DNA of 63,971 nt, the filler included, from Reclinomonas americana ATCC 50394 (lineage: Eukaryota): the NCBI GenBank assembly GCA_048213135.1. It is 19 parts of 19 records of this genome, joined end to end, with 100 filler letters (N's around TTAATTAATTAA, not from the genome) between each part and the next. Parts side by side here need not be neighbours in the genome. Positions count along the whole stretch, not along the records: positions 10,510 to 12,303 come from AFZH01023229.1; 18 more parts are not named here. One strand, written 5' to 3'. The position numbers and the translations under genes are program-made. Positions 10,410-39,867 of this stretch are shown piece after piece. Each line of letters starts with the position of its first letter. The stretch's first letter is position 1. The notes under the pieces were generated by a model. The model had not been told where the DNA came from, ran no database searches, and saw only the letters and a program-made list of their open reading frames with translations.

Positions 10410-10559
10410 NNNNNNNNNNNNNNNNNNNNNNNNNNNNNNNNNNNNNNNNNNNNTTAATTAATTAANNNNNNNNNNNNNNNNNNNNNNNNNNNNNNNNNNN
10501 NNNNNNNNNTGCAGAACCACAAACAAACCAAAAGAAATGAAGAAGACACAAACGCAGAA

Positions 10560-10594
<35 letters not shown>

Positions 10595-11291
10595 ATGGGA
10601 GAAACGTGTCGCGGCCGTTGCGTGCACTCGCCGGCCGTGCCGGTAACCGACACGCCGAGTCGAAACGACAAGGACGGCACGGTTTGTGCATGCCACGAAA
10701 GTACGTCCTCCGTGATGATGGGTTTCGCGAGCGTGCAGTGAACTGCACACCTCGCATTGGCAGACGCGACGGGCAAACGACATTCTGAGGGTGCGAGCAA
10801 CGAATGAGGGACCACGCATACTAGAGTGGCACCCCACTCTCGCTCTCTCTCTCTCTCTCTCACTCACTCACTCTCTCCCGGCCCTCTTTCTCACGTGCAC
10901 GCACCACAGTCGTCGCGCGTCGCCATGGTGATGGTGCTCGAGCAAGTCGCTCCGGTCGCAGCTGCACTCGAGCGCTTCATTGATGCGCGTACACACACGC
11001 ACACGCGCACCAGTCACAGCAGCTGTGCGACCGACTGCGGCGCCAGGCAAGGCACGGCAATGGAGGCGATCAGGGCGTGGCAATGCGACCTTGCGGAAAA
11101 CACACTCGATGAGCAAAGGGAGTGTGCACGAAGAAAGCATCATTCGCGCAAGTCTTACCTGCGACTGCGACTGCCACTCTACTGCAGAGAAGAGGCCCGC
11201 CGCGCACCGATCGAGAGCGGAGTCGTGCGCACAGTGTGACGCACAGCACGACCATAGCCATAGTCCACCTGCACTACAGCACCCGCCCTCC

Positions 11292-12303
11292 TCACACATC
11301 CTCATCCACCTCGTCCGTCTCCATCTCATCCGTCTCCGAATCCGCTTGTGGCACCTGAGATGACGGCTTGCGTCGCTTGCGTGCAAGTTCATCGTCGACG
11401 ATCAAGTGTGATCCGTCACGAAGGTGCTTTCCACTGCGGCGACGTGGCGCTGGTTCCGCCGGGGGTGCTGCCGGGGGTGGAGGCGGCGGTGGTGACAGCA
11501 ACCAACCAGCGGGCGCAGGCGGGCTGCGTGGATCGCACCGTACGCAGTGAGATGACAACTGCGACACATGTAGACCCAGCTGGCCAGTGCGCACGTGCGT
11601 GTACTTACCCAACCAATTGCACGGCGTCACTGCTGCGTGGAAAAGGTAATGCCACTGCTCCTCCTCGCGGTGCTTCTGTTTTCGGCAGCGGTTCCTCAAT
11701 CGCGAGCGCGATGCAGCAGATGTTCTTGGCTGCTGACCCGTCACGCGAAACTGGCACGTTGTGAAGCCTGCAGCGTGAATTCTTACACCTCAAAACCTTC
11801 CGCGTACCAGGAGCCGGGTTAAATGGTTTGCCGCAAGAACAGTAGCGAGTCGTGAATCCCTCGGTGGGTTGGACAAAGATGATGGGCCGCAATCCGAGGA
11901 GAGCGCGCCTTGCGTTGGCCTTGTCGATCTACACGAGACGAAGAGTGAGTGCTGGAGTGGGACACTTCACACAAAGAGAGAGACAGAGAGAGACACGCAC
12001 CGCGCGCTTCAGCCTGGTTACAAACTGACCGTGCCCATCGCCGAGCATAGATCGCGTCGTGGATGACAAGATGACGCGGCGTTTTGTCTCGCTCGTGCCG
12101 TTGGCGTAGTCTCGCTGAGTCCAGCGCGCTGCCATGCTGCTCACCGATTGACTGAACATGGGGATGATGAGCGTCGTAAACAACGCAATCAGGCTGCATG
12201 TGTGACAGTGAATCACAAGGAGACGCAGGCGCGCACACCAGCCAACCGCCACGCCCGCAACTAGTGAATCACAGAGATGTGGAAACTGGTGCGGATGCGC
12301 GCG
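11292..12303 (-). CDS. Spliced Fanzor2/TnpB-like RuvC nuclease gene, 5' truncated (exons 12303-12262, 12193-12001, 11928-11609, 11523-11292)
   Basis: Joining three GT-AG introns gives ..FHISVIHYLIALFTTLIIPMF..VSSM..ILSSTTRSMLGDGHGQFVTRLK..PTEGFTTRYCSCG..VLRCKNSRC..SRDGSAAKNI. The last intron and exon are less certain. Confidence 0.8.
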
Positions 12304-12403
12304 NNNNNNNNNNNNNNNNNNNNNNNNNNNNNNNNNNNNNNNNNNNNTTAATTAATTAANNNNNNNNNNNNNNNNNNNNNNNNNNNNNNNNNNNNNNNNN
12401 NNN

Positions 12404-12735
12404 GAGAGAGAGAGAGAGAGAGATAGGGGAAGGGTAGAGAGGAGCACAGCAGCAAAGGGGAGAAGAGTGAAGACTGGAAGGCGAGAAGATGAGAGTGACA
12501 AGAGGGGGAGAGTGAAGCGGGAGAGCGGCGAAGAGAAAGTAGGAGAGCACGGTAAGGGAGGATGAGAGTGACATGTGGTGAGTAAGAGCAAATGGAGGAA
12601 GAGAGAGAGAGAGAGAGAGAGATAGGGGAAGGGTAGAGCACAGAGCAAAGGGAGAATGAGTGGGGATAGGGTATAGGAGCGAAAGGGAGAGAATGAAGTA
12701 GAGTGAAATACATAGAGAGTGTGTGAGAGAGAGAG
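12404..12735. repeat. Purine-rich low-complexity / (GA)n microsatellite tract
   Basis: (GA)n runs, and GAGAGAGATAGGGGAAGGGTAGAG occurring twice. Confidence 0.85.
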
Positions 12736-12739
12736 GCTC

Positions 12740-15700
12740 ACTTTTGCGAAGAATGGCCTTGTCCTTGCGAGACTGCTGACCCGAGCTGGCGAACAGATCC
12801 ACAGCAGCGGCGACGGCGGCATCGGCATTGTCGCCGTGCACCGCAGCTCGCCTGTTTGTAACGACGTCCATGTACTGACGTTTCCGCTTGGCGATCATAA
12901 TGTCGCACACGAGCGGGCACTCGCTCGTGCCGCATTCCATAACGACTGTCGCCAGCTTGCGCTCCATACGACGTCGCCACACCGCATCGTTCTTCGTCTC
13001 CATCACGAATCGCGTGAGAGTGTCATTGACGCGCTTTCGCACGGCTGTCGCTGTCGCTGCACGGCCAGAGAGTGATGAGCGAGAGAGAAAGAGAAGAGCG
13101 GTGGGAGACGAGTGAAACACCAACCGACAGAGGTTGCTTCTCCTCCTCCTCCGCCGCCGGCAACCAACGTCGACCAATTTCGCTCCTTACGCATTTCGCC
13201 TGGTAACACGATGAACATTGCGTCAACGCAAGATAGCGAGAGAGAGAGAACAGGATCGCAGTGTACACACCGGCAACAGCACGCCATGACAACACATTGA
13301 CGAAGAGTGTGCCCGTGGTCGCGACAACGTCCTTCAAGCAAGAGTCAAGATGCCGAAGCGCTTGGAGTCGGGCACGATCTGCGTCCGAGAGCGCCAGCTG
13401 CCGCTCCTGCAAGGCCTTGGCCGCCGTCTGAACTGCCGACAGTTGCGGTCCTTGTAATCGCGCTTGCGAGTCGTCGAACCATCGTTGCTCAATGCACAGG
13501 AGAGCGGCAACAACTTCGGCACGCTGAACGGCCGGCAGTTCATCGTCAGCAGCCGGCGGCGCATGTGCCGCGTGAGCGGCGGTCAGCGCACTGGTCAGTC
13601 GGGAGCTGCTAGACAGCAATCGGCAGGCGTGTTGCTGTACCGCGTCGACATAGGCAATCGCTCCGCCAACCAGCTCACGGGGAACGGCCAGGAGTCGAGC
13701 CATAGCAGGCACGTCACCGTCCGGGTCCACATCAATCTCCATGAGCTGATCTGACTCCACGGCCAATTGCAGCGAGCGCCGCAGTTCGGCAATCGCCTGC
13801 AGCTTGTCCCGGTCGCCACGCTTACTCAACACAGCTAGGAGCGTCATGTGCGGGTCATCAAACAGCTGGTTGACGGACGATTCTGCGGACTGCATCTGCT
13901 GCGTGAAGAGGTCGATGTGAATGCGGATTGCGGAGGTCAGCTGCGCCTTGACACGTGCGTCAATGCCCGATGCGTGTGCACGAGCTTCAAACACTGCAAT
14001 GGAGGGGACGTACGTGAGATGGTGGTGCAAATTGCAAGAGAGAAAGACCAAAGGAGAGAGCGAGAGAAAGGCCAAGGGAGGAAGAGAGAGAAGAGAGAGA
14101 GATCAAGGGAGAGAGAGAGAGAAAGGGAGAGAGTGGTGCGTACCATTTTTCTGCTTGTGATAAGAGCGGCAGAGGCTGCTGGCACAGTGTCTGACAGCGT
14201 TCCACGCAGCCAAGGCAAACTTGCGGAGGTGAATGCGAAGTACTTGATCGTCTTCGGTACCAATTCTCTCGCCTCGCACGTGCATGCGCAGCAAACGCCA
14301 CGAAGTCTCTGCCAGTCGGTGCACTCTCGTAGATGAGACGGAGATACAAAAGAAGAGCAATCATAAGAATGCGTGCGCACCTAGGTCGTCGGCAGCCTCA
14401 CACACGGTGGCCGAGAATGCTGAGTCTGCCGACGCCGCCACCAAAGTCAGAACGCGCAGCAATGCGTGCACGACCACATCGGCGGCGTCCATGATGCCAA
14501 CGTTGACGCTTGCAGCCACCCGATCCCAGATCCCAGGCAACATCTCCACCACCCGCAGCAATCCGTAGACTCCGCAAGAGACGAGCATTTTTGCCTCTTG
14601 CTCGGATGCGCCGACATCACCGCCGGCGGCGAGCAGCGTGATGAATGATTGCAAAAGTTCATCGTCGTCGTGCTCCCTGTCGACCGCCGAGCATCGCGTC
14701 AACCACTCAAGTCGCTGCCTCGCCACCTGCAGCTCAGAGGCGAGCCCCACGCATTGTCGCACGCGGGCCACGGCATCAAGAGCATCTGGCACATCACCGC
14801 TTTGTCGACCCGAGTCCTCGCGCACCGGCATCGACGACAGAGCGTGGCGAGCATTCTCCACTGCTACGGTGGCGCACTCGCCAAGCAACTCACACACTGA
14901 AGACAGGTTGCCGGAATCACTCGGGTCCACAACAGCGGGCCCAGGTTGTTGTGGTTGCTGCGCATGCTCAGCAGTCGCGTGATACAACTCAAGTGTCTTG
15001 AGCATGAGACTCGTCTCAGCCACACGAAGAGACACGGTGGGCGCGACAGCGGCCACGGCGACATTCTCGTATGCTGCACGCGCGTACAATGCACAAAACG
15101 ACGATTGAAACGGTGAACACACACGTATCGACTGGAGTCACCATCACCCATCGCAACGTACCAGCGTTTCGCAGCGTCTGTCGCGCAAGTGACTGCACCT
15201 CCTCGGTCAACATTTGCGGCAATCCAGACGCAGACAGCTGCTTGTCCACCACAACCGCCGACGGTGTCTTGGAAAAGCTGACGCGATGGATGCACACAAC
15301 GTCGACGAGATTCTGCGTCAGAGCACTCGGCGGCGGCGGTGGAGTGTTCCAGCGTGCTTTCCATTGCGAGAGAATGCGACGCTTCGCATCGGAGAGGAAG
15401 CGCCGCGCCGCATCAAACAACTTTCCCGAGAGTTGCAGCAACTCGTAGTTGCAACTCAACAGATCTTCTCGGCAGGCTTGTCGTAGATCGGCAGCACGGC
15501 CTTGGCATGTATGCGCCAGTCTAGCGACAAACTCATCGCTGCGTGGAGAGTGTGTGAAAATCAGTATTGCGCGAGCACTTCTCACACACAACCAGAAAGG
15601 GAGAGAGAGAGAGAGAGAGGAAGTACCAGTCGAAAGAGGCCGGCCGCTGTTGTGCGCTGTGTGCCTCAAGAGCTTCATCGACCCCGGTCTCGAATTCGGT

Positions 15701-17850
15701 GTCGCAAAGCGCCTGAGCACGCTGTTGTGCAGAAGCGTGCAACGTCGAGGTTCTCGCAGTTGCACCGACGCACAGCTCCTGTTGGAGGCACCGCATGAGC
15801 GCCAACAGCACTGCACACACCATGCACAAAGAATCAGTGAGCTGAGCGTGTGAGGCACACGCAAGAGTGCAAGGTTTACGCACAGCCTCGAATGGATGAT
15901 TCCTCGTCAACCACTTCGTCGTCGTCGTCTTCCTCCTCATTCTCCACCTCATCCTCCTCCTCGTCCTTCTTCTCCTCGGCAGCTGGCCCCCGCACGCATT
16001 GGTGCCGATCGACGACGTTCTCCACCGCCTGGGCAACGGCCACCAACGAGAGCGGGGCTGAGGCGTTACGGCACAGACCGGCAACGCACGCGGCGCACGA
16101 CTCGATCAACGCCTTAGCGTCTGCACGACACGCAGCCTTCCAAGTCTGACCAGTGACACACTGCGCCGCCAGTCGCGCAGCCCATCTCCGCAGCGAGTCA
16201 GCCAGTCGCTGCAATGGGGCGTGCACCGCAGGATGGGAGATGCTCAGGATGCAGCTGGAGGACTCCGGCACCGGCACGGCAGCAGGTGCTCTCGCTGTGT
16301 AAGCGCGCGCAACGTGCTGTATGAGTGGTGCGCCATGCAGGTTTCGCGCGCGCGCTTGACGGACGTGTCACTCACCTACGGGCTCCTTTTTCTTCTTTGA
16401 TGGTGCGGCCGGGAAGAGTGCGCACACCAGCTTCCTGCATTGGTCACCTGTAGGAGAGAGAAAGCGAAAAGAGAAAGAGTGAGAAAAACGAAAAATCTTG
16501 CATTGGCAGAGAGAAACGTAACGACAGTCTTGCAGTGCGTCGTGCAGCTTCTCCGCCAGATTGGCGGACGACCGTCGCAGGCGATCGACATGTGCGACGA
16601 CAGCTTCAGCTGCGTCCACGTCACCGGCCTCGAATGAACTGTAAAATTCTGTGAAATCAACCCACCATAATCAGCTGTCCTGCAGCTGTCCCTGTCACTC
16701 CCAAACACACAGTCAACACACGCATAGCACACACCATCGAAGAGCATCACATCCGTCATCACGTGCAGCAGCCTGGCGAAGGAAGCATGCCCATTCTGGA
16801 ATGCTAACGTGGCCAGGCTCAGTTGCGATTCGGCAAACGGGTCGCTCCCTGACCTCAACTGTGGCCGTGGTATCTGGTCGAGAAACCGCTTCACGGCATC
16901 AGAGTCGTTTACATCGGCGTAGGCACTTGCAGGTTCCTGGCCGATGTAGGCGAAAGAGAATGACAAGAACAGTGCATTCTGCTGAGCTTCACGCAGAACA
17001 CCGAGGTCCGCATCATCTGTGCACCATAGCCACAGGTGCGCGGTGTGGTGAGTGATTGCAAAGGAGCAAGTCATCCTCTTGTCTCTCTCTCTCTCTCTCT
17101 CTCTCTGCTGCGCGCTGCTGGGCCCGGGTATGTTCACATGCGCCCTCTCCCTCTTCAGATGTCTCTCGTTCACTGATTCTCGTATTCTCTCAATCTCTCT
17201 CTCTCTGCGTGTGTTTGTTTGTTTGTTTGAGACCAACGTACCATATTCTCGTGCACGTGTGCTCATGAGGACGGCGAAACGACCTGCGAAGAAAAATTGT
17301 AAGGACTTATCGTCTACTCGCACGCTCCCTCGATCGCTCTTCAGTCCATCGCCGCTCTTCTCTCTCTCTCTTGTATCTCTTCCATCCCTTGAGCTTGCCT
17401 CTCTTGTTTGTGTATCTCTGACTTGCTTACCAGCAGCGTGGAGTTTTCTTCGGCACTCGGCTTGAATGTCGGTGATGATTGTGTCAACAGAATCCACCAT
17501 CGGCAAACCCTCATAATCAAGGAGAATTCTGTCGCGAATCAGCTTCTGCATGGAGTTCTCGAGAATGCTCGTTGCTGTCGCGTAGTCTGCATGCGACAAC
17601 AGTAACCAGTGAGCAAGCGAGAACAGTGAAAATGGGAACACGCGCGCACAAAGACAACCCACCTCTCCGCTTCTTGTCCGTGGCACACAGTATGTCAGCA
17701 AAAACGTACTTCGCTGCCAGCAGCTGCACAGTCCGGCGCATTTCCTTCGCCATAAAGTTGGTCCCGTTGAAAGCGGACTCGGCCGTCTGAGAGCAAGACA
17801 AGAGGACAATGGATGATGAGGACCTTGATCGAGGGGGATCCTGCAGTCAT
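12740..17850 (-). CDS. Multi-exon eukaryotic gene(s) of unknown function (large helical protein)
   Basis: Successive coding-like minus-strand frames (e.g. 13100-14010, 14370-15080, 15130-15545, 17440-17590) separated by CT-rich GT-AG introns. No recognisable motif. Boundaries approximate. Confidence 0.5.
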
Positions 17851-18469
17851 GGAAGGGCAAGAAGAAGGACAAGAGGAAGAGGATGAACGAGAACAAGAAC
17901 TAGAAGGAGAAGAAGAAGAAGATGGTGGTGGAGGAGGAGGAGAGAGNNNNNNNNNNNNNNNNNNNNNNNNNNNNNNNNNNNNNNNNNNNNTTAATTAATT
18001 AANNNNNNNNNNNNNNNNNNNNNNNNNNNNNNNNNNNNNNNNNNNNCAGCTCATGTCCACCTGTCCGCCAACGGCTGCAGACGCCACAGCACGAGCATCG
18101 ACAGAGCAGTGGAGCTGAATGTCCCCGCCGCTGTCACCGCGTGCAATGAGTCTCGCCACACCGCGTGGAATCGGCAGCGCGAAAACAAGCGGCAGCAAGC
18201 TGCACCACGCCCAGCCCACAGTCAAGACAAAAGCCAAAATGACAGCGCACACTAATCGCAGCTGTGGTGACGAAACATGGCTCGCTCCAGCTCCCCGTCA
18301 GCGCCAAACACGTACTCAATCGCTCCGCCGGCAGGCTGGTTGAGCAACAGAGGCAATTGCACCTTCGAGTCGAGAATGGAGTGGTCGTATTGTTTGACGC
18401 CGGGTCTGCGTTACGCACGCTGCAGTGAGTGCACAGCTAAACATAAATGAGTCCATTCAATCGCGATAT

Positions 18470-20580
18470 TACCTTCCGCGAACGGCTTGGGAGTGCGATG
18501 AATACTGCTTGAGGAGGGTGACGAGCATTTGATGTTTTCTGTGGACATCAGGCGGTGCAATCACTCGACCATGGCCTGCAGCGCCTTCCTCGTCACTGGT
18601 GGTGCACAGACAGTTACAGTCAGCATTGGCAACCAATCCGCAACAATTCGGGCCCCATGCACACACACGTACCCGGCATTCGGATTGTCGAAGGCAATGA
18701 AGTGCGAGCGACTTTCGTCGCTCGTGCACGCCAAGGCTGCCAAAAACCTCAGAAAAGAGGGCGGACAGATGCCGGGCGAGAGCAAGATGGAGCCAATGAA
18801 AGGGCATCTTCGCGCAAGGCCGAGAATGATGTGGAGAACAGAACTCAAAGTTTTCTTCTTCAGCAACTTGGTTATCGCGCTCGCTTGGCGAACGTCGTTG
18901 GCATGGGCAAGAGAAAAACGCAATGTCTATACATAAAAAACGCGCGCATGAGGCCAGAATCGAGGTGCACAATCGCAGCGCAGCGACAAAATACGATACA
19001 TACCGACAGCTCATCAGCACTCTCAGCAGGAAGTATGCCGTGCGTCGCAATCAGCGCCACCAGAAAACGCACAGTGTGCAACATTGTCGCTGTGAAGGAG
19101 AGCATACTCTTCTTCAGTGGATCGCGCACGTCGCCGATGTTCACAGGCGCGTTGGCGAACACAAGGCTGCTGGTCGACTTCGCCTGCAAGTGTTGCGTGA
19201 GCAGTGAGCCGCAAAACAACACTTGATCGCACACACACACCTTCGCAGCTGTGGACTGCTTGTCTGCATCACCCGTCGGCGGCGGGTGAACAAAAATCGC
19301 CGGTACCCGTGGTGGCGCACGTGGCGGTGGCGGTGGCGGCGGCGGCGGCGGCGGTGCGCCCTCTGCGTCGACTCCTGCCCCTGCGGGCGCCGCAGCTGTT
19401 GCGTCACTGCCACTGTCGGCACGAGCAGAGCGCGTTGGAGGCGGCGCAAGTGTGGCAACCGGGTCGCTCATGATCCCTTTGTTGCACAAGCCCTCGAAGG
19501 AGTGTCCCACAGCGCCAGACTCGAACAACTTGCGCCCCTTTTCCTTTGTGTCGATCTCCGTTTCGTCGCGCACGTACAGGTGGACGACATCCACGTCACT
19601 GCACGCCAGCGTGAACAGTTAGATGTAACTCTACACAGTGTTGTCTACATAAAGTGCAACATACCTGAGTTGGGAGGGGTCCGAGTCGAGAATGACTTGC
19701 AGCATCTCCTTCACCACAAGCGACATTGGGGTGGAGAAACATCTGCGGAAACACAAATGCATGTTAATTATCACGAGATATCACCTACAACAACTTCAGG
19801 CACCCGCACTTTCGAAGCGACAGCTTGGATTTCATGGACTGTGCCAAGGCAACCAGAACACCATCGCCTGCTCTACTCATGAGGCGGCCGACCTCCGCCA
19901 CCAAGTCTGCTGCTGCTAGAGTCTCGGGTGGCACACAAAAAACTTGTTTCTGCGCGACGTTCCACCGCAGGAGGCAGATTGACGCGGTTATGGCAAAGTC
20001 CTGGACGTGAGAGGGCACCACCAGCGCCGGTTTCTTTCCAGCCGCAGCGCGGGATCCTGCTGAGAGCCTCTTGAAGGCCTCCTGCACAGTGCCTAGCAGT
20101 GCAGTCGTGTGTGCGAGGTCCGTCGAAGCAAACAAGCTGGGCGCACTGGGCATGCACGCACAGCCAGGACGGTGAGTAGTCTTGCGGCAGAGAAGTGGAA
20201 CCGACCAATCGCTTCGCAACTGCACGACGAGGAGGAGGAGAAACATCAGCCGCGCGTCGCTGGTGGCCGGCAGATCGAATCTTCGCTCCTTGTCGGGGTT
20301 TCCACGTGCTGCCTTCTCCCCCACACTTGTAAAAACGAGAGCGGCGTGCATGGCGGAGACTGTGGTGCGAAGTAATTAAGCTCTGAATGGCAACCGCAGG
20401 GAGCGTACAGCTCTCCTCACTCATCACTCACCTTCCTCGCTCAACAAGACATCTGCATTTCTTGTTTCAAACACTTCAACGTCTCTCTGAAAATCGTTGC
20501 AAAGTCGACGCCTTTCCGGTGGGAGCGAGGCCAGAAATAGATCTTTGCTCACCAGCAGTCGATGAAGCTGCGCATGTTTC
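18470..20580 (-). CDS. Probable multi-exon eukaryotic gene, unknown function
   Basis: Coding-like minus-strand frames (18561-18923, 19020-19594, 19785-20351) with a poly-Pro linker and plausible splice sites. Boundaries approximate. Confidence 0.4.
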
Positions 20581-21601
20581 ACAAGTATGTGAGCAAGAGA
20601 GAGAGAGGCCGAGGCATCGACACGACAAGCACGTAACGAAAAGAGAGCGGATGTATGGTTNNNNNNNNNNNNNNNNNNNNNNNNNNNNNNNNNNNNNNNN
20701 NNNNTTAATTAATTAANNNNNNNNNNNNNNNNNNNNNNNNNNNNNNNNNNNNNNNNNNNNGGGCGCAAGTCATCTGCGCCGATCTCGCAAAGGAGCTTGA
20801 AGTCGTCTGGCGCTGGGCTGCCAACATTGGCCAGTCGCTGCGCAAGAAGCAAGGCATGCAAAGTTGGCGATGCTGTCGCTTCGAGGGCGATCGCCTCGAT
20901 AGCTTGCTGCCACGGATCCATGGGCAGTGGGTGCTCCACCGGGCCCGCCGAGAGCAACAAAAACCCAGCAGGCGCAGTCGCCATGTTTGCTGAAGCTGTG
21001 TGAGCGCGCAAATGTAAGTTAGAGGCGCGCGAGTGAGAGACATTTCCATATGCATATGCACACACGCCCAAAACACATCTTTTCGCTCACTTATACGTGC
21101 ACTACGAGAACTACTACTGTGGTCATTGAGGAGCAACACACACGTGCGCACACGCACACTGCCTCTCACCTCTTGCGTGCTTGCCAGCTTGTCCTATTTT
21201 ATTGGGGGTTACTGCGAGGTAGAATGAAATTCTACCTATAGCAGTAACCCTCTCTCTCTGCCAGCGCACCCTCCCCGTTCCTTGGACTCTGTTATTCGCC
21301 ATTTCGCGCCCTCCTCCTCGGCCACGCATCACCGCGCGACACTAACACCACCACCACACTCCTCTTTGCCTGCCATGCCAGAGCCACTCAAGAAATCGCA
21401 CAGAGAAGAGGGTGGTGAAGTAGCATCGCGTGTGTGGAGGTTTGTTGGTGAACGGAATGCGTTCACAGCGTTTTCTTGGCACCAACTTGCTCAGCGCCGA
21501 AGACTGCGCAGGAATGGCAGCCCAGCGGAGTTCCTGGTGAGGAGTCAACATGCGATGGACACCCTTGCCAAATTCGACCAGCCGCCGCATTTCGCGCGCA
21601 T

Positions 21602-21645
21602 TGATTGCGTCACACATGATTGCGTCACACTTGATTGCGTCACAC
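21602..21645 (+). repeat. 3 x 15-bp tandem repeat (TGATTGCGTCACAC-N)
   Basis: Copies start at 21602, 21617 and 21632. Confidence 0.95.
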
Positions 21646-21824
21646 CCCGTTTTGCGATCGCCATGCGAGAGCGCGCAACACCATGAACCGACGCAGCGGA
21701 AATGAAGGTGTGCTTCTCCCCTTCAATTTCGATTCGATGACTTGTGACTGATGACTGACCACGATGTTGTGCAGGAAACGGTGGGCGGCCAGAGCGAGAG
21801 ATCCGCCCTCCTGCTCGGTACGCT

Positions 21825-22862
21825 GTGGACGCGCCCGCGAGTCGCCGAGAGGGCTTGCGGAGAGAGACCGGTCTTCCAGGTCGCCTCGCCTCTGGCGATT
21901 TTGCCGTCGAGATGCGTGGCGTGAGAGGCGCCCCACCTCCACGTGGACGACGTACATCGGCACCACCCGCGCCACGTCCAGTTGCTCAACGACGTGTGGA
22001 GCGCGAGGAGGAGGAGGGGGAGGAGGAAGCCCAACGCGTGCGGCCACTGTCCCGGCGTGAACTAGATGCTCAGAGGAAGCGCCTGGCTCGAGCCAACGAA
22101 GACGCTGAACAGCGCAGACGTCGTCTGGAGGCCGACGCACAGCGGCATCGTGAAGCGCGGGCCAGGGAGAGCGCGGACGAACGAGATCGCCGACTTGCAG
22201 CAGACCGACAGCGTCATGCCGAACGGCGTGCGCGAGAACGCACCGTGGGAGCCCCCGTTGCCGAGGAGGTTGTGCCTGCCGAGGTCGATGGCGCACCGCA
22301 GTCCCCACAGGCCGAAGCATGGCAGCCGCCCCCGGGTCCATTCGGAGAATTGGAGGCCTCATGGAATCGCGCCTTTGCCGACCACAGGCAAATGCCCTGC
22401 TCGCCACTGCGACAACTTCAAGGGTCGCTGGTTCGGGTGGAAGGTCTGCGCACGGCGTGGAGCCAAACACGGTATGCAACGATCATGCGGCGCACTCACT
22501 CCACAGCTGTCTTGATCGTGCGTGCACTAACAAGACATGTCGCCACAGCTGGCCGTCTTCTGTGTGATCGGTGCGACCGCCACAAGGAAGATTCACCAGA
22601 GTTCCAACGGTGGAGCGCGGAGAACAACATTGATCTTGGCGAGCAGCGCAACGAGCTGTTGGACCTCACTACGCTTGAGCGGATGATCATTTCGCCCATC
22701 GATCTGATCATGTCGGTGCACCTGCTGGTCACCTCCAAGCACAGCAACAACCTCAACGCCAGCCACCTCGCTCAGCTGGCCTTCATGGGCCACGTCATCC
22801 ACATCCCATGGCTCTCGACGACAGCCTCGAGTTCTGCGTGCACCGATACCTGCCACTGTTGA
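21825..22862 (+). pseudogene. Frameshifted remnant of the N-terminal region of a Helitron-type RepHel protein (charged repeats plus DUF6570-like domain)
   Basis: RARESADERDRRLAADRQR repeats, and CDRC...WSAENNIDLGEQRNELLDLTTLERMIISP...GHVIHIP. No Rep or helicase motifs follow. Confidence 0.7.
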
Positions 22863-23521
22863 CAGCGGAGGTGAAGACGCAGCCGACGACATCCAGCGAC
22901 AAGTTGACGAGCTGCGCGGTCACCTGCAGTACAAACTCGACTCCATTCGAAACCATCGCCAAGGCGCCGTCGCTGAGCTCGAGGTGGCAGCTAGCGCTGC
23001 TGCACCAATTGCCGAGGTCATGGAGGCCGACCAGCAGGCCGCCGTGAGGGACGACGCCAACGCAGTCCTTCTCCAAGACAGACATGCATGCCGTTGTGCT
23101 GGTGACCGCTCCTGCAGATCACTTGCACATGCAGATCGACGTGCAGATGAGGATTTGCAGTCACAAGCGAGGCTGCTGACGAGGCGGCAGAGGAAGAGGA
23201 GGAAGAGATGTGAATAATGAAGCCAACAATGCCAACCGCCATTCCATTTCGCCTCGCAGTAACCCCCAGCTACCGCAACGCGGTGCCCCCTAGTTTTCCC
23301 AATGTAACGGACATGATACGTCCGTCGGGACACGCACAAAGATTCGAGCTAAGCGACGGAGCTGGAGGCGAGGGAGAGATCAGTGTGGAACAGAGAGGAG
23401 GAGGGGGAGAAGCATCGTCGCGCGCGATCGATCGCGACGTCTGCGCCAGCTGCATTGAGAGCAAATGCGTGTGCAAGAGAGCGCTCGCATAATGGAGACG
23501 ACAGAGCGGACGTCGACGAGA

Positions 23522-23562
<41 letters not shown>

Positions 23563-23634
23563 CTACCGAACAGGGGCATTGCGGTGCCGGATCTATATTC
23601 CGCGCGTGGCCATGTCATGCATATATATATATGT

Positions 23635-25850
23635 GCATCTGTCGATCACTGAGTGCGATCGTTGGCTTGGCGCCGGCTACCCGTTCTACTCACCGACTCG
23701 TACAAGTGAGGCGAAGAAGCAAGTGACGGAGATGCTCACTCTGATTGAGGCCATCATGATCAAGCAGTCGTCGCTGTTGCCGCTCCAGAAGGTGGATGCC
23801 GTTCGCCGCTTCGTCCTCACCAAGGCCACCTTCGTCATGTCGGCGGTGGAGCTCCAGCAGTCCGTGCTCGCCAAAATCGACAGCAAGATCCGCGACAGCA
23901 TCCGACTCTGCCTCGGCCTCGACAACGACTCCGGCACTCCCTGCCTCTACACTCCGCTGTCGAAAGGTGGTCTCGGTCTGTACTCGGTGGTGGAGCGAGC
24001 GGCCTCTAGATCTCTGTTGATCAACTCGGCGGTGAAGCTGCTGACACACCGCCGACCGCTGACTCGCCGTGTGGCGGAGCACATGCTCCACTGCTCGGTG
24101 AAGGCGGCCGGTGGTCGTGTCGACGATTTCTCGCCGTTGCCGACTGCTGGTTTGGTGGACAAGTACCGGCAGTCGAACGAGGTCACAGACGTCAATCGCC
24201 AGCAGTTGCCAGTTGCCACGCCGCAGCGGTATTTCTCTGTGTTGTTGTCTCCTGTTGTTCCCCAGGCCGGTGCTGCTGTGGCTGCTCTTGGTGCAGGTGC
24301 TCGCTTCCAAGTTGCCACTGATCCGCATGCCCCTCGCCGCGCTGTTCGCTCCAATCTGATCATGATGAGTGCTGCTCTCGGGCACGCTCTAAAGTTGGGC
24401 GTCAGTGTGGAAGTGCATGCGGCTGCCGCTGCTGGTCAGTCTCCGCTGGTGGTCGGACGGCTGGCTGACGGTGGTGTTGTGTTTCCCTTTGCCTCCGGAT
24501 CCTGCTTTTTGCCTGCGATGTCACACTTCTACTCCAAGCGCCACATTGCTGGCTGGAAGGAATTGCGGAAGTGTGGTGCCTTCGTCGACTCTCTGCAGAA
24601 GGCTGCTGCCGGAACCCATGACGTGGTGGCTCAGGGCAACGGCATCAGCGAGAAGGAGCAGCCCTTCCTGTGCAAGATGCGAACCAACTCCGTCGCGCTC
24701 AACAACAAGGTGGCTGTCATCAACGGCAACGCTGGTGGCCCTGCCTCGCTGTGCCCGTTCTGTGGCAAGGAGTCGGAGTCGCTCGGTCACTTGCTCAACG
24801 GCTGTGAAAAGCTGAAGGGCATGTGGACGACGCATCACGACAACGTGCTCGACGTTCTCCAAGCGGCTTTGGTGCGACGCCCCGAGGAGGACGGTGTGGT
24901 GTGCCAGCTGCTGCGCGAGCGTGTCGACGCCGATCTGCTGCCAGCGCCGGCGGACATTGACAACCACGCCGACTTGGCCAGGCTCAAGCCGGGCCTCATG
25001 ATCACCCTGGTTCACACCAGAGAGGGGACTGGTGAGATCTCCTTGGTCCAGGTGGTGGAGTTGACGTGCCCCTTCGCCAATTGCAACGAAGACTCGGTCA
25101 AGACTTCAGTCAATGGCAAGAAGGCCAAGTACGAGCCGTTGGTCAAGGCCATCAAGCAGAAGATCGGCGATCAGGCCAAGGTCGAGCTGGTGGTGCTCCC
25201 TGTGACCTCGATTGGCACGGCTCGGTTGCTGGTTGTCCATGGTTTCCACTGGTCTTCGTCGTCTCGGCGTGCGCATGCAACGTCCGGCAGTGCATCTCTC
25301 GCCTTTGCACGACAAGCTTACGTACAAGTTACTCGATGTTTGTTATGCGTTGTAAGGGTGTGGGTGGTGCACAGGGTCCGGCCGGAGTGCAACTCGTTCA
25401 AGGTGGTGCTGTTTGAGAGAAGTAATTATAACGGTTTCCCAATGCTTGCCCCACTGTTCTTCTTGATATGTTCAATTTCTTTTTGTCTTCTTCGTAGTTA
25501 CTGCGATGGACGTCTTCTGGTGGTCACTGCTGACGAAGTCTTCTTCCTGGCCTGGAGGCTGTGTGTCCTGAATAGGGCTTTATTCTCAACATCGACAACA
25601 CAGTTAAAAAAGTTTAGTTGTAGAAGGAAAGCACACGAGACTTGTTGGCGATCATTGGTAGATGCTCATTGTTGTGTATGGACCAGTGAACTTTCTATTT
25701 TTTCTCATTGTTGTGCACGTGTGGATCCGGATCAGTGAAGGTTGTTGGCGATCATTGGTAGATGCTCATTGTTGTGTATGGACCAGTGAACTTTCTATTA
25801 TTACTCTATATTGTAATGTCAGTGAGGTTTCTATTATTATGTTGATCACA
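23635..25850 (+). mobile_element. 5'-truncated non-LTR retrotransposon of the restriction-like-endonuclease type (R2/NeSL/R4-like), degenerate
   Basis: LYTPLSKGGLGL (RT thumb region), CCHC knuckle CPFC..ESLGHLLNGC, HHDNV, KPGL (PD position), VELTCPF and K..KY. Frameshift near 25211-25221, with likely true stop at 25353-25355. Confidence 0.85.
25642..25799 (+). repeat. 58-bp exact direct repeat with 100-bp period, in the retroelement 3' UTR
   Basis: 25642-25699 is identical to 25742-25799. Confidence 0.95.
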
Positions 25851-25989
25851 CGCATGCATTTAAACTCTTCTTCTTTCCCCCTCTCACCCCTTCGTCTCGT
25901 ACAAAAGAACGGCAACAAAATAAAAGTAATGCCTGTCAACACAAACAAGGTGCATGCATTAACGCATGATCGCACCGTCTCGCTCTCGA

Positions 25990-28048
25990 CTGGCCGAACG
26001 AGTTGATGGCGCGCACATTCACCACGTACGGTGTATGAGGTTGCAGGTTGGCCTGGGTGTACGCGTAGTTGGCGCGCGATGACGACGACGTCGAGTCGGT
26101 GGCGTTCTTGTAGCCGAAGATGACGTTGCCGCCGTTCTCCGGGAACGTCTGGATCTGGTAGCTGGTGATCAGCGCCAGACCAGTGTAGATCGGGGTCGAG
26201 AAGTTGACGGTGATCGAGGTGTTGGTGCTGGTGCCCTGAGTCGCGGCGGCCGGAGCGGCAGCCTGGCCCGTCTGCGTCAGAGCGCCCTGAGTCGGCGTGC
26301 CAATATAGTTGTTGGCGAAGCCCTGAGAGCCCTGGCCGAGGCCGACAGTGTTGCCACCAATCAGCACCATGCGGTAGCGCGACGACGGCTTGATCGTCTG
26401 GAATAGCTGCACGCAAGTGCCGGCAATGGCCGGGTTGGTGCCGCTGCCGAGCACAGCAGTGTTCATGCCCAGGCCGTCAGCGGCGGCCGGGTTGCCAGTC
26501 GACGCCAAGAAGCGGGTCGTCCACTGCCAGTACACCAGGTAGTAGGTGGTGGCCGGCGCCGCAGTCGTGCCCGAGCCCACCGCAGTCCACGACACGCGGT
26601 ACTCGTTGGCGGCGTAAAAGTCCAGCGACGGAGTGCCAGCAGCCGGCACAATGCCAGCCGTGGTCACAGGCGCCGCCTGGACGTAGATCGACAGCGAGTT
26701 GTTGCCCGTGCCAACCGAGTTGGTGGCGTTCAGGAAGAATCGGTAAAAGTTGCCATTCACCACAGGCACCGACGCCGTGGTGTCGGTGGCACCCACCGCC
26801 ACCGCCGGGTTCGACGCAGTCGTGCCCGACGCACCAGTCAGCGACTGGCCAGAGATGGTAGTCGACGCACCAGTGGCAGTCGTCCACGAGAACGCAATCG
26901 CCGTGCCAGTGTTGCTGGTCACCGCAAAGTTGGTCTGGTCGTTCGGCACCTGGCCCGTCAGCACGTTGTTGTTGAGGCCGTTGCCGATGATGCCATCGCC
27001 GAAAGTGGCCTGAGTCGTCGAAGTGCCAATGCCGTTGATGCCGCGCACGTCGACAAAGTAGTTGGTGGCGTCGGTGAGGCCGCGGATCACAGCCTGCATC
27101 ACCGAGGTGGTGTTCTGGGTCAGCGTGCTGGCCGTAGCCGCGCGCCACGACACCTGCCACTGGTTCACGAAGCCCTGGCCGCCAGTCTCCTGCGGCTGTC
27201 CCAGCTGAGCCAGATCGAGGTCGAACGCTTGAGCAGAAGGTTCGAAGACAGCGACGTGATGCCGCTCGGGCGCTGCGGCGACGTGGCCGTGGTGATGGTG
27301 ATGGCCGTCGCAGACCAGGCAGTCTGGTAGCCGTTGAACGAAGACACGCCAATGCGGTACTTGGTGTTGGCGGTCAGGCCATTCACTGTGAGCGTCGAGG
27401 TGGTCGAGCCGAGCGAGCCAGTGAACTGAGTCACAAAGGAGTCCGGCACAAAAGTCGTCGAGGTGACGTTGGTCAGGTTCTGCACCAGCACCTGCACGCC
27501 GACATAGTTCGAGAAGCCGTCCGACGTGGTCAGCGAGTACTGCGTGCCCGACACAGTCGACGGGGTCGACAGCGTGAAGGTGGCGTAGCCGGAGCCAGTC
27601 GTGCCAGCCGAGCCGCCAGTGGTCAGAGCCGGCAGCGGGTACGGGCGCACAATCGAGTTGGCAATCTGCGACAGAGTGCCCGACTGAGCACCGCTCTGCG
27701 TCGACGTCACACCAGAGTCCGTGCGGGTGTTGGTGGCCTGCACGGCGTAGGTGTACGACTTGCCCGGAATCGTCGGGAAGTTGAAGTTGGTGGTCAGCGT
27801 CGTCCACGTGTACGTGCGGTTGCAGTTGTTGGTGTTCTGCGTCACAACGTAGCCGTTGATCGAGGAGCCACCAATGCCAATCGGCGACGTCCACGAGATG
27901 CTGGTGATGGTGTCCTGGTAGCAGTTGCCAGAGAAGCCCACACTGAGGGTGCCAGGCACAGCCGTGTAACTGGCGCTCGAGTTGGTGCCCTGCAAGTTCG
28001 CCACACCACCAGCCAGCGTCGGGGCGGCCGGGGCGATCGGAGCATCGT
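25990..28048 (-). CDS. Large exon of a Ser/Thr/Gly-rich fibronectin type III repeat protein, with a 1-nt frameshift near 27238
   Basis: FN3 signatures WTSPIGIGGSSINGYVV, GLTANTKYRIGV, GLTDATNYFVDVRGINGIG and NLQPHTPYVVNVRAINSFG, in two frames that join at ..SN/SAQAF. Acceptor CAG at 28049-28051. Confidence 0.8.
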
Positions 28049-28870
28049 CTGTAATGATGGAAAAGCACGAAAAATCAAGTCAGACATCATATAATAACAG
28101 CGCACACTCTTCCCTTCCTCCCTCCCTGTCTCTTCTGACGGGCACAAAGCCTTTGCCAGTAGCGTCACGGCGGAGCTCCGGAGAATGATACACCCGAGCT
28201 TGATCATTCAGCGCACAGAATGCAGCACTGGCAGGCCGTCCGCTCTCGGAATGAAGCGCGCACACGTCTTGGTCTTCCGCGCGCCGCCGACATGTACAGA
28301 TCCAGCGACAGACCGCGAATAGCAGAACCGCTTGTGGCCACGGGTGCCTCAGTGGCAGCCTCACCCTCCACTATGCTGGGAACGCGCTTCCGCACCCAAG
28401 AGGCTGCAGGTATCAAAAATGCCATGCGCGTGAGAACTGCATCACACAGTCACGAGCATGATGCCGCAGCTCCACATGCATGCGCAGACAACAGGGGAGA
28501 GACACACACATGCGTGCAAGCGGGAGAGAGAGATGGAAGCGAGAACAGACACGCGAATCTGCACTTGATTGAGCTTTAGCCAGCTGCGGAGCGTGTGCGA
28601 TGAAGTGGAGTGCTTGACCACCTCGTCATTGTTCTCTGGTAAGCAGGCGCTCTCGGGTGGAAGGCATAGTGGAATGACTGTCTCCATTCTTACGAGTGAA
28701 GAACTGCCAGCGTGATCCAGCGTATGGAAGGGCGGGAGTGCTCGCGCGCATTTCCTTTTCAAGTTTTTTTTTTCGGACCTGACCAGACTGACTGGGAGTT
28801 GTCCTGCGGCGGACGCAATCATCGTTTCGTTTCTGTGTTTGTGTTGTGAGCAAGCAAGCTTTAGGCACAC

Positions 28871-31689
<2,819 letters not shown>

Positions 31690-31862
31690 AAAGTGAGGGA
31701 GAGGAGAATGATGATGATGACGTGGTCACTGGAATTCATTGTAGTAGGGACTGGTAAACAAAACAAGAGAGGGGAGTGGGGCGTAAACAAAACGAGATCA
31801 AGAGAATACCAGTGGTGAACACACACACGTCGTCACACAGCAGAGTGCGTTGGTCGAGCTGT

Positions 31863-33258
31863 TCAGAGCTTCTGGCCGGCCTCCAGGTAATCCGACTGCA
31901 GCAGCTCCTGGTTGTTGGAGGCACCGCTGGCGGCCTGCAGCTGGCGACGGCGACGCACAATGAGGAAGGCGACGAGGGCGGCAATCAGACCAGCGCCGAC
32001 AATCGACAGCGGGATGGCCAGGCCGAGCTTCAGGGCGTTGTTGTTGTTGTTGTTGGTGCCCTTGTTCACGGACTCGAGGTTGCCAGTCGAGCCGCCGCAG
32101 TTGGCCGCGCTCGCCATCAGCTGTGTGTTCCCACCAGCGTCAGCAACAGCAGCACACACATCGGTGGTGACAAACAAGGCACACACGAAACGTTGCTGTC
32201 GGTCGTGCAGCGGTTGCCGACCTGGCCGCACCACGCGCTGCGCACAACAACAGAAAATCAGGAACAGCACACAGAATGGTGTCTCTGGCAAGGCGCGCAG
32301 CACCTGTTCTGCATGTCAACCTGCACCGAAAACCAACCCGTGAGCATGAGGAAGCGCAGGGGAAGAAGATGGGTAGATCTACACACACCGACGCCTGTTG
32401 GTAGTTGCTGTTGTTGAGGTCGGAGATGGTCTGGGTGAACTCGTTGAAGCCACCGCAGCCTGCCGAGTGAACCATTAGTGGACATTGGTGATTGAGAGAC
32501 AGACAGGGGAAGAGTGAGTGAGTGACGCACCCAGGTTGAAGCTCATGTCAATGGCGACAGCCTGTGCCGGGGCCGGCATGTTGCTCCAGTTGGAGATGGA
32601 GTTCTGGGCGCAGCTGATGGCCGACTGCAGGGTGACCTGCAGCAGCTGGTCAATCTGCGACTGCGACAGGCACTGCGAGCCGTTGAGCACAGAGTTGCAG
32701 TCGGCGCCGACATTGGCCAGCTCCTGAGCCTGCTGAGCGGCGCAGCTGCGCACAAGGAGAGAACGAGAACGAGAGTGAGAGTCGTGAACAACGGGCGGTG
32801 CGAGAACATGTCAAACAACAGGCGCACAACGAACAACAAGAGAGAGACAGCGAGCGAGAGAGTGTGTGGGGGTAGAGAAGGAGGGAGGAAGGGGGGGGGG
32901 GGGGGGGACGCACTACTGCAGGTTGAATCCAACGCCTGCGAGAAGAAGAGATGCGATTTGTTAGACACAGTCATGAGAGAAAAGAGGCGCGCGCGCATCA
33001 GCATGACGGACCGACAGTGGGAATGCCCATCTGCGCAGCATGGGGTGAGTATGGGATGGACAGGGAGTGTGTGCTGTGTGGTTTGCTCACCGAGTCGTTG
33101 TAGACGCACGACTCGCTACCTTCGTTCTGCGCCACCAGCTGGTTGACGAGATCGTACGTGTCAGTGCACGTCTGCAGCAGCTGGGCCTGGGCGGGGGCCG
33201 CCAGCAGCATGGCCACGGCAACGGCCGCGAAGACGACGAGGAATGTGCTCTTGCGCAT
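31863..33258 (-). CDS. T4-phage-type (GH24) lysozyme with signal peptide and C-terminal TM helix, 8 exons
   Basis: Spliced NEGSESCVYNDS|MGIPTV|GVGFNL carries an E-x8-D-x5-T triad. Also DMSFNLG and SAWCGQVGNRC, then LGLAIPLSIVGAGLIAALVAFLIV-RRRR. Confidence 0.88.
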
Positions 33259-33524
33259 TGTGAGAAAGAAAAAATTGTCAGTCCTGCGTGACAGACAACA
33301 AAAAAACGCTGCGGGGGAAGCGAGCCCGGTGCGCGCAGAGGGTAAGAATTCAATACATCCTATCACTGCTTTTCCGGTCGATGCACCCGTATTCCCCAAG
33401 GGAAAAGAAGTGCCCGCACCCCGAGTTTCGACGTCGTTCCCACCGTCCGTCCCGCACGAATTCATTCGTTGATTGTTTGTCACTGTCTGACTGTTCCATA
33501 TCAGGTCTCACGCATCGACCGTCC

Positions 33525-34883
33525 ATGGGTATTTTCGACTTCACCGACTTCATCCAGCGCAACGATCAGTTTCTTGTGCCGCTGAAATTACTTGACGCGG
33601 CGTGCGCTCAGCGCGAGAGTCGGATGAGTCCACCACATCCTGACCGCTTATCGGATGCATATAGCACTGGTACAAGTGAAGGGTCTGGCCACGCTGTGTT
33701 GGTGTTGGTGCCGCAGTGGATCGAGCTCGACCACACGGATGGCGTCATTGATCCGACCACCTCTACAGTCCCCCAACGACGCTGCACGAGCTGGGAAGAC
33801 TGGAAGCGGCATCATCGTATGGTGCAAGAGAAGGAGATCCACACGTGGCCGCTTAGTCGGTTCGCCGCGTTTCCACGCATCGACGCCAGCTACTCGTGGG
33901 ATGATCGAGAGTTTCAGGTGCTGCGCGCGCAGCTGTCAGATGCCCTCCGCCGTGTTGTCCGGCCTCCAGATCCATACGACTCGTCAGATGACGGCGAGGA
34001 AAGCGACGAGGAGCTGGAATATTCTCGCCGCAGCAATGCCCACGATGACGACGAGAGTCTCGATCCCGAGGTGACGATAGACGGTGTCGGCGGCGTGTGG
34101 GAAGACCAGCAACTCCCGCACGCGTACATTGTGTCCTTTGAACCGCGCGCTTTCGACACCTTTGTGCTCAACGGCGCGCAGATGGAGCCCGAGCGCGTTC
34201 CCTGGGCGTACCTGTGGTTCGTCTTCAATTCTCGACATGCACCCTTGCCGCTCACCAAGGTGGAGGCGTGCCGCATGATTCTGGGAAACGAACTGGAGAT
34301 CGCTCTCCGTGCTCCGCCGCTGCCACCGCTGCCGGATGTCGACGGATGGCTGAGCCGTCTGAACGCGCAGATCGAGCGGCTGCGGCGCGAGCCCGTACTC
34401 GCCACCGCAGTACACTACTCGCTGGAGAGCACTCCCGATCGCGAGGCACTATCGAAAGCTCGTCTGTCGGTGCTGCTTGGCGATCATGTGCAGGTCGCTG
34501 CCGACGATCCGGCCCGTCATGCAGTGCGAGTTGTCCGTCTGGTGTGCAACACTCACTGCCCTGGAACACTTTCCGACTTTGCCGTGAATTTCGTGTCCAA
34601 CATTCCACTTCAGCTGGACTCGCGCCAGTCAGGCGTTGGTTGCCTCGTTTGTGGCTCTCGACGAGAACTTGCCCGCTACTTTTGTCCCGCACATCGCGAG
34701 GCACCATTGCAATCCGCTTTCGTGGAAGCCGGGGAGCGACGAGCTTCTGCCTGTCGCGAACTGTTCGAAACCCTGGAGGCTGCGATGGAGCACTTCAAGC
34801 CACCGGCAACCATGCAGGCCGCCTTCACCGAGCGGGGAGTGGACTATGTGTTAACGCTTGCGCTAACTCGGCCTCAAGAGTGA
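33525..34883 (+). CDS. Intronless hypothetical protein (about 452 aa) with an acidic tract and a Cys/His cluster
   Basis: Long open frame from MGIFDF; SSDDGEESDEELE; CLVCG...FCPAH. Confidence 0.65.
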   Translation: MGIFDFTDFIQRNDQFLVPLKLLDAACAQRESRMSPPHPDRLSDAYSTGTSEGSGHAVLVLVPQWIELDHTDGVIDPTTSTVPQRRCTSWEDWKRHHRMVQEKEIHTWPLSRFAAFPRIDASYSWDDREFQVLRAQLSDALRRVVRPPDPYDSSDDGEESDEELEYSRRSNAHDDDESLDPEVTIDGVGGVWEDQQLPHAYIVSFEPRAFDTFVLNGAQMEPERVPWAYLWFVFNSRHAPLPLTKVEACRMILGNELEIALRAPPLPPLPDVDGWLSRLNAQIERLRREPVLATAVHYSLESTPDREALSKARLSVLLGDHVQVAADDPARHAVRVVRLVCNTHCPGTLSDFAVNFVSNIPLQLDSRQSGVGCLVCGSRRELARYFCPAHREAPLQSAFVEAGERRASACRELFETLEAAMEHFKPPATMQAAFTERGVDYVLTLALTRPQE

Positions 34884-39796: not shown

Positions 39797-39867
39797 TCTT
39801 GTCTCCGCGAGAGGTTTGACTGTGTGTGTGTGTGAGGTGTGCTCGCGACACAATCAAACAAACAAAC

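Follow-up and report, generated by a model that had tools for sequence, protein, structure and literature searches.

The question raised by this locus is whether several short open frames on the minus strand of a 1,794-bp contig are the separated exons of a single gene for an RNA-guided nuclease. The stretch analysed, called the window throughout, comprises 63,971 bases of the Reclinomonas americana ATCC 50394 assembly GCA_048213135.1, in which 19 separate contigs are chained by N44-TTAATTAATTAA-N44 linkers (e.g. 10410-10509 and 12304-12403), and the contig in question occupies positions 10510-12303. Fanzor2 proteins are the eukaryotic descendants of IS607-family TnpB. Our answer is that this contig very likely holds the 3' part of a nuclear, intron-interrupted gene of the Fanzor2 type, and that the covered part would encode the RuvC-II strand, the alternative catalytic Glu, the zinc-ribbon (TNB) domain and RuvC-III.

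Gene model and assignment to the TnpB family

The gene model, in window coordinates, is as follows.

12262..12302, minus strand: partial exon 1, cut by the contig end at 12303; codes for ARIRTSFHISVIH plus two bases of a Tyr codon finished by 12193, and would form the helix preceding the RuvC-II strand
12261-12194, minus strand: intron 1, 68 nt, GTTGCG..CAG, phase 2
12001..12193, minus strand: exon 2, coding for the RuvC-II strand LIIPMF, in which Pro (codon 12162-12160) takes the canonical Glu position, and for the helix ...TRSMLGDGHGQFVTRLKRA
12000-11929, minus strand: intron 2, 72 nt, GTGCGT..TAG, phase 0, CT-rich, with an in-frame TAG at its 3' end
11609..11928, minus strand: exon 3, with the alternative Glu at 11862-11860, the zinc ribbon at 11841-11770 and the RuvC-III Asp at 11742-11740 in RDGSAAKNI
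11608-11524, minus strand: putative intron 3, 85 nt, GTAAGT..CAG, phase 2, with a perfect consensus donor that overlaps the TAA
11292..11523, minus strand: putative exon 4, an open frame with a Pro-rich linker, ARKRRKP resembling a nuclear localization signal (NLS), an acidic ETDEM/ETDEV tail and a stop at 11294-11292

The four exons joined give 786 nt and a 261-codon frame that is open at the 5' contig end and has a single terminal stop, and within it exons 1-3 account for 185 codons without internal stop or frameshift. If intron 3 is not spliced, the protein ends at the TAA at 11607-11605. A first-pass annotation of this DNA had described this stop as lying inside a perfect GTAAGT donor, and the TAA does fall within the donor of intron 3; the coordinates, splice borders and peptide strings of that annotation (LIIP, PTE, RDGSAAKNI, and ARKRRKP with the acidic end) were likewise all found in the sequence. 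It had also placed the N-terminal half of the protein, including the RuvC-I Asp, off the contig, in agreement with the contig end at 12303 and with the finding that no N-terminal-half profile match occurs elsewhere in the window. A further candidate intron in exon 2 (30 nt, GTGAGC..CAG) was dismissed, as its removal would delete a conserved Met and it is far shorter than the local introns.

Family membership was assessed with a profile built from eight relatives (P0003, P0005 and P0006-P0011) and containing no window sequence. Among the 1,481 six-frame segments of the window, this outside-only profile matched exon 3 with an E-value of 2.4e-11 (profile positions 481-545) and the exon 2 segment with an E-value of 9.6e-5 (profile positions 416-472). 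The other 1,479 segments all had E > 2, so the window contains neither a second copy nor an N-terminal half that the profile can detect. Because the two matches are adjacent, colinear and on the same strand, we read them as the rear part of one TnpB-family gene. The spliced product, for which the first-pass annotation had predicted a profile match, scored 71.6 bits as a single sequence (E 3e-24) over profile positions 415-544 of 569. The resemblance of the predicted protein to the TnpB family is far beyond chance.

The relatives themselves were reached through exon 3. A phmmer search with exon 3 against 1.84 billion proteins gave five matches, of which two, P0003 with E 4.5e-4 and P0005 with E 8e-4, are genuine relatives that carry PF07282; the remaining three (P0001, P0002 and P0004) were discarded as repeat proteins with repetition-inflated scores. 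P0003 led in turn to the six full-length relatives P0006-P0011, with PF12323/PF01385/PF07282. Against the curated models, exon 3 reached E 0.011 and 16.3 bits for Pfam PF07282 (Cas12f1-like TNB domain), for which the cut-off is 26.3 bits, and E 0.13 and 11.5 bits for NCBIfam guided_TnpB, for which the cut-off is 100. A PHROGs search with the exons gave no match, and a word-indexed search for longer proteins gave none for exon 3 among 503 candidates and, with P0005 as the query, returned P0005 alone. An exact 30-mer of exon 3 had 0 matches in metagenome contigs. The phmmer matches of exon 3 in the PDB were weak, the best two being designed repeat proteins, with Cas12p at E 0.51. Locus scans with a 3-sequence alignment produced 23 viral and 127 metagenome candidates, 0 of which were confirmed, and an AlphaFold2 model of exon 3 alone from an 11-row alignment (mean pLDDT 45, pTM 0.25) gave no usable fold.

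Catalytic residues, relatives and element context

In order to compare individual residues, 166 relatives (8 metagenome proteins, 79 viral, 23 cyanobacterial and 56 other prokaryotic sequences) and the window protein were aligned to the profile. The two columns for the RuvC-II Glu are occupied as follows.

Canonical RuvC-II Glu column: Pro in the window; Pro in 8/8 metagenome, 34/79 viral, 15/23 cyanobacterial and 1/56 other prokaryotic sequences (Glu in 43/56 of the last group)
Alternative Glu column, six residues before the first Cys: Glu in the window; Glu in 8/8 metagenome, 61/79 viral, 16/23 cyanobacterial and 12/56 other prokaryotic sequences

The RuvC-III column is Asp in the window protein, where the motif is RDGSAAKNI, and in 166/166 relatives. 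The RuvC site of the window protein is therefore of the rearranged kind, E-GFTTRY-C with Pro at the canonical column; PMC10711439 defines Fanzors and pro-Fanzors by the loss of the canonical RuvC-II Glu together with an alternative Glu that stands six residues ahead of the first Cys of the zinc finger. The Pro, the alternative Glu and the RuvC-III Asp named in the first-pass annotation are thus all confirmed by the column alignment. Its further remark that all expected features are present stands for these three and overlooked a Cys-to-Gly change in the zinc finger. Of its three catalytic residues, the window protein thus keeps the alternative Glu and the RuvC-III Asp. RuvC-I would lie beyond the contig end, as would the HTH, WED and REC domains, any TnpA and the element ends.

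In the zinc ribbon, ligand columns 1, 3 and 4 are Cys and column 2 is Gly, compared with Cys in 159/166 relatives. The first knuckle reads C-S-C-G, with a Cys one residue early, instead of CxxC, and the second reads C-K-N-S-R-C, that is C-x4-C. Over the columns that are conserved in at least 85% of 58 clade members, the window protein is identical at 19/26 and changed at 7/26.

Among solved chains, the family profile without the window sequence found mimivirus L79 (ApmFz2/ApmFNuc, 9b0l) as its best match, with E 5.3e-61 over nearly the full length, and ISDra2 TnpB at about E 5e-23; a profile including exon 3 matched L79 with E 2.5e-10. None of the 23 chains listed at E <= 0.001 for the family profile, or of the 17 at E <= 10 for the profile with exon 3, is named Fanzor. 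In both the window protein and L79, the RuvC-II strand and a helix precede the alternative Glu, which stands six residues ahead of the first Cys, and the zinc ribbon and RDxNAAxNI come after it; the alternative Glu of the window corresponds to E467 of ApmFNuc (PMC10530073). L79 differs in having Gly rather than Pro at the canonical RuvC-II position, so that the first-pass statement that Fanzor2 has Pro there is correct as a description of what is typical of the window's clade but does not extend to every Fanzor2. The knuckles also differ, being C-x-C and C-x4-C in the window and CxxC in L79. L79 is intronless and lies within an IS607 element with TnpA (PMC10530073), whereas the window gene has at least two introns. 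In the phmmer search with exon 3 alone, L79 was not among the PDB chains at E <= 10.

When loci were scanned with an alignment of five proteins, 318 of 434 viral-contig candidates were confirmed, many of them in giant-virus bins, as were 325 of 536 prokaryote-genome candidates, the best of which are from cyanobacteria. This viral and cyanobacterial spread is the published pattern for Fanzor2 and the cyanobacterial "pro-Fanzors" (PMC10711439, PMC10530073). Of the relatives that contain the N-terminus, 7/7 have DPG (RuvC-I), and the published Fanzor/pro-Fanzor regular expression (PMC10711439) fits 5/7. With tblastn at E <= 1e-3, the window protein matched 4 of 160 fetched loci, all viral and with 26-32% identity, and 0 of 80 prokaryote loci.

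A FastTree tree, midpoint-rooted, was calculated from 157 of 167 sequences (10 with more than 25 gaps being left out) over 131 columns. In this tree the window protein pairs with P0005 (support 0.84) and then with P0003 (0.85), and the enclosing clade of 40 members, all with Pro and the alternative Glu, consists of 16 viral and 15 cyanobacterial sequences, 7 metagenome proteins, one short Bacteroidetes-binned contig and the window. Given so few columns, the placement is no more than indicative. Members of the same clade include the cyanobacterial pro-Fanzor TnpBs with DPG and the alternative Glu from IS607 (Yoon et al. 2023, PMC10711439), which are prokaryotic and intronless, in contrast to the eukaryote-like window contig. 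The nearest relatives are P0003 (151 aa, "putative transposase"), 44% identical to exon 3, and P0005 (363 aa, "hypothetical protein"), 35% identical. Both share the second knuckle C-x-N-[PS]-x-C with the window, and P0005 also has RDGxSAKNIC; unlike the window protein, both retain a CxxC first knuckle.

With L79 as the top match, and with the window protein in a clade with giant-virus and cyanobacterial IS607 members, the comparisons point to Fanzor2 and not Fanzor1; this distinction rests on the solved chains and on a tree of metagenome, viral and prokaryotic relatives. On this sequence evidence the predicted gene belongs to the Fanzor2/IS607-type branch of TnpB. The first-pass annotation had likewise called it a TnpB-superfamily gene of the Fanzor2/IS607 type, and the profile matches, the solved-structure match, the motif columns and the tree clade bear this out.

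The closest relative, represented by P0003/P0013, consists of open reading frames (ORFs) of 131-176 aa that start just ahead of the RuvC-II helix on contigs of at most 2.3 kb, and the N-terminal extension of P0013 looks unrelated. The P0003/P0013 gene may likewise be split by an upstream intron.

If the protein works as mimivirus ApmFz2/L79 does, its complete form would bind an fRNA that stems from the end of the transposon or element and would cut matching double-stranded DNA beside a short motif with its single RuvC site. That active site would combine the RuvC-I Asp, the relocated Glu and the RuvC-III Asp, and there would be no collateral cleavage; the Fanzor2 mechanism has been characterised in PMC10530073. 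That the window gene is transcribed, spliced and active is our inference.

In 6/6 relatives tested (3 viral and 3 cyanobacterial, hence 3/3 for the cyanobacterial loci), an IS607-type TnpA with a MerR helix-turn-helix and a Resolvase domain (MerR-Resolvase) is encoded directly upstream. The tnpA ORF of these relatives overlaps, in another frame, a stretch of the TnpB frame that is stop-free for 517-631 codons, so that most of tnpA is spanned by an open TnpB frame. The positions are as follows.

Relatives with this arrangement: L001 2614-3366; L004 2452-3231; L028 2539-3216; L081 2734-3360; L085 2674-3312; L088 2845-3357

The first-pass annotation had suggested looking for other copies and for terminal inverted repeats. 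The six-frame profile scan of the window contained no other copy, and a repeat search of the contig gave microsatellite-based direct and inverted repeats only and no terminal inverted repeats. Rfam gave nothing at the gathering score in the window and, on the contig at E <= 1, one snoRNA model far below threshold, and single-sequence folds of 10990-11291 and 11292-11610 (z +0.61 and +0.90) are no more stable than shuffles; these Rfam and fold results on the Fanzor contig do not count as evidence against a guide RNA.

Introns and the host of the contig

The borders of introns 1 and 2 were examined by enumerating neighbouring GT-AG pairs that keep a stop-free frame and scoring the products against the outside-only profile. 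For intron 1, the borders given above outscore every other stop-free option (9 in all, counting the unspliced form and 8 GT-AG pairs), with 71.6 bits compared with 64.7 for the retained form. For intron 2 they are the best of 14 (13 GT-AG pairs and read-through with X), with 71.6 compared with 63.2 bits when read through; near-ties are the acceptor at 11920 (71.4 bits) and the donor at 11994 (71.0 bits). Retention of intron 1 likewise leaves the frame open as far as the contig end, and because no stop interrupts it, intron 1 has to be judged by homology. Intron 1 must be taken out for a BLASTP alignment with P0003 to reach residue 1 (ARIRT/ARVRN, H, VI, L), and in the spliced form the helix aligns without a gap, ARIRT---SFHISVIHYLIALFTTLIIPMF against ARVRNRIDDLHHRVIAFLTSSFNVILLPTF of P0003. 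Compared with the family, both interruptions purely add sequence and take away no profile column, and removal of both by the GT-AG rule brings back the family-typical spacing.

The style of these introns can be compared with that of a gene for cytoplasmic-type arginyl-tRNA synthetase (ArgRS) at 29806-31686 (+) on a 19-kb sister contig. This gene is split by six introns of 59-72 nt. Before intron removal the region has 5 stops in the coding frame and 12 and 19 in the other two, and after removal it forms one 493-codon open frame whose best solved matches are cytoplasmic ArgRS chains (E about 3e-53). The six donors are GTGAGT, GTTGCG, GTTTGT, GTTGCG, GTGCGT and GTACTG, with five CAG acceptors and one TAG. 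Thus the donor of intron 1, GTTGCG, occurs twice and that of intron 2, GTGCGT, once among the ArgRS introns, and the sizes of 68 and 72 nt lie in or next to the ArgRS range, the 72-nt length itself being found there. On the homology scoring and this agreement in intron style, the first-pass proposal that the gene is split by short GT-AG introns is upheld for introns 1 and 2, which we consider highly probable to be real. A trypanosomatid origin, which the CT/GA tracts might suggest and which would preclude cis-introns, was rejected in view of the six cis-introns of the ArgRS gene.

The Fanzor contig belongs to a compositional group of four eukaryote-like contigs spanning 10510-40206 (10510-12303, 12404-17946, 18047-20660 and 20761-40206). 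These have GC contents of 0.57-0.59 (0.59 on the Fanzor contig) and dinucleotide microsatellites at 8-29 nt per kb (29 nt/kb on the Fanzor contig), and the 3-mer correlation of the three sister contigs with the Fanzor contig is 0.90-0.94, with 0.94 for the contig carrying ArgRS. The remaining 15 contigs have 0 dinucleotide microsatellites, GC mostly of 0.60-0.68 and 3-mer correlations of 0.25-0.67 with the Fanzor contig, and they carry bacterial genes (NnrS, an ANTAR regulator, Crp, and IS110 and ISL3 transposases). The window therefore mixes 4 eukaryote-like with 15 bacterial-like contigs, as in a mixed assembly or bin, and the host of the Fanzor contig is an intron-rich eukaryote of about 57-59% GC; the first-pass term "protist" is more specific than this evidence shows. 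Both the two homology-supported GT-AG introns and the grouping with the ArgRS contigs place the gene in a eukaryotic genome.

TnpB-derived nucleases with spliceosomal introns in eukaryotic hosts have been described before (Jiang et al. 2023, PMC10530073), with intron densities of up to about 9.6 per kb and with acquisition of NLSs (PMC10530073). The intron-bearing example tested there is Fanzor1c of Chlamydomonas reinhardtii, whereas the window gene is Fanzor2-like. Intron- and NLS-bearing Fanzors being already published (PMC10530073), the window gene adds a divergent member of a known family, and intron-bearing Fanzor2 genes may already be recorded in PMC10530073 or PMC10711439.

Alternative readings and the C-terminal extension

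Several observations weigh against an intact Fanzor2-type gene on this contig. RuvC-I is outside the contig, a single copy is present in the window, and the window sequence alone stays under the curated Pfam and NCBIfam cut-offs. The predicted protein is divergent, as its 4 matches among 160 loci in tblastn indicate, and in its zinc finger the second ligand is changed from Cys to Gly and a neighbouring conserved Gly to Lys. The advantage of the spliced forms over retention is modest (7-8 bits) and the borders of intron 2 are nearly tied. Finally, intron 1 combines an open retained frame with a flanking 11-nt duplication. This 11-mer, TGTGATTCACT, is found at 12273-12263 (the 3' end of exon 1) and at 12217-12207 (in intron 1, 13 nt before the acceptor) and nowhere else in the window, where 0.03 occurrences would be expected by chance, and both copies would code V-I-H. 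The pair may stem from a duplication connected with the way intron 1 arose, or from a frameshifting insertion in a pseudogene.

The latter possibility leads to the alternative that fares best, namely that the contig holds a decaying pseudogene of an old IS607/Fanzor2 insertion that makes no protein. The 68-nt segment would then be a frameshifting insertion or duplication and the 72-nt segment a stop-bearing insertion, with GT-AG borders by coincidence. The degenerate zinc knuckle and the 7/26 changed columns fit such decay, as do the exact repeat, which brackets 56 nt at the site of intron 1, the single copy seen and the several lineage-specific insertions relative to the family. Decay is harder to reconcile with the 185 codons of exons 1-3 free of stops and frameshifts, with retention of the alternative Glu, the RuvC-III Arg-Asp and three zinc cysteines, and with insertions that cost no profile column and whose GT-AG removal gives the family's spacing. 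In addition, bona fide introns in the same organism group have these insertion sizes and donor hexamers. We therefore regard a pseudogene as unlikely.

Another reading, the stronger one of the first-pass annotation and in our view improbable and without support in either direction, is that of a domesticated host gene. The Fanzor2 core would no longer be mobile and, by way of a third intron, would have acquired a linker rich in Pro, an NLS at the C-terminus and an acidic tail that serve a new role in the nucleus. It draws on the perfect GTAAGT that covers the stop and the CAG acceptor 85 nt on, which together open 77 further codons with a Pro-rich stretch, ARKRRKP (the KRRK of the NLS-like motif) and an acidic ETDEM/ETDEV run. 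The ETDEM/ETDEV units are coded by an in-frame 15-nt tandem repeat at 11305-11334 (copies 87% identical), and introns as such imply long residence in the genome. Yet a second acceptor at 11559 (50-nt intron) also yields an extension, of 52 aa in another frame, and in this GC-rich DNA long open stretches occur in all frames around the tail. A codon-usage log-odds model (2,981 training codons) gave 0.013 per codon for exon 4 compared with -0.125 and -0.442 in the other frames, and it does not discriminate, because exon 3 itself (-0.033) is not separated from its other frames. No relative has a tail similar to putative exon 4, and the published Fanzor NLSs that were tested are N-terminal (PMC10530073). 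None of the 10 titles and abstracts listed in a literature search dealt specifically with a domesticated Fanzor2 of eukaryotes, and no observation made here bears on mobility or copy number. Use of intron 3 is accordingly a tentative call that falls a little short of even, and the NLS and acidic tail are plausible but putative.

A related and similarly doubtful proposal is that the window gene, P0003 and P0005 form a separate, eukaryote-resident Fanzor2 sub-lineage with host-type introns, and that the window gene was exapted as a nuclear RNA-guided factor of the host. Such a sub-lineage may be marked by its second knuckle, C-x-N-[PS]-x-C, and by the divergence of the helix ahead of the alternative Glu, and the degenerate zinc knuckle, the Pro-rich linker, the NLS and the acidic tail via the third intron may be traces of the exaptation. 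Finally, that the contig is a fragment of a giant-virus or bacterial IS607 element co-assembled with the rest, as the 15/19 bacterial-looking contigs and the viral origin of the closest fetched loci might suggest, is very improbable, since the coding sequence is broken twice and repaired by splicing alone, and the GC of 0.59, the microsatellites (29 nt/kb, 0 in the 15 bacterial-like contigs) and the 3-mer correlation of 0.90-0.94 all join the contig to the eukaryotic ones.

On the favoured reading of a nuclear, spliced Fanzor2-type gene, the locus is of interest in several respects. Fanzor2 proteins are compact eukaryotic RNA-guided nucleases that attract interest as genome editors, and they trace transfers between cyanobacteria, giant viruses and eukaryotes. 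A Fanzor2-like gene with introns, in an intron-rich eukaryote, is a data point for long nuclear residence of an otherwise virus-enriched, TnpB-like branch. The practical value is small, as the gene is a single partial copy. Gene callers that are blind to splicing hide such genes, and exon 3 alone is below the Pfam and NCBIfam cut-offs.

The other contigs of the window carry further features. On the bacterial-like contigs these are:

46555-47628, plus strand: IS110-family transposase (PF01548 and PF02371)
45554-46366, minus strand: ISL3-type transposase fragment
59251-59940, plus strand: protein with a SocA/Panacea antitoxin domain

On the eukaryote-like contigs, the long frames at 23465-25735, 33288-34880 and 16379-17896 have no Pfam match, and a 710-aa open frame at 25939-28068 (-) on the 19-kb contig contains a fibronectin type III domain (E 1.1e-15).

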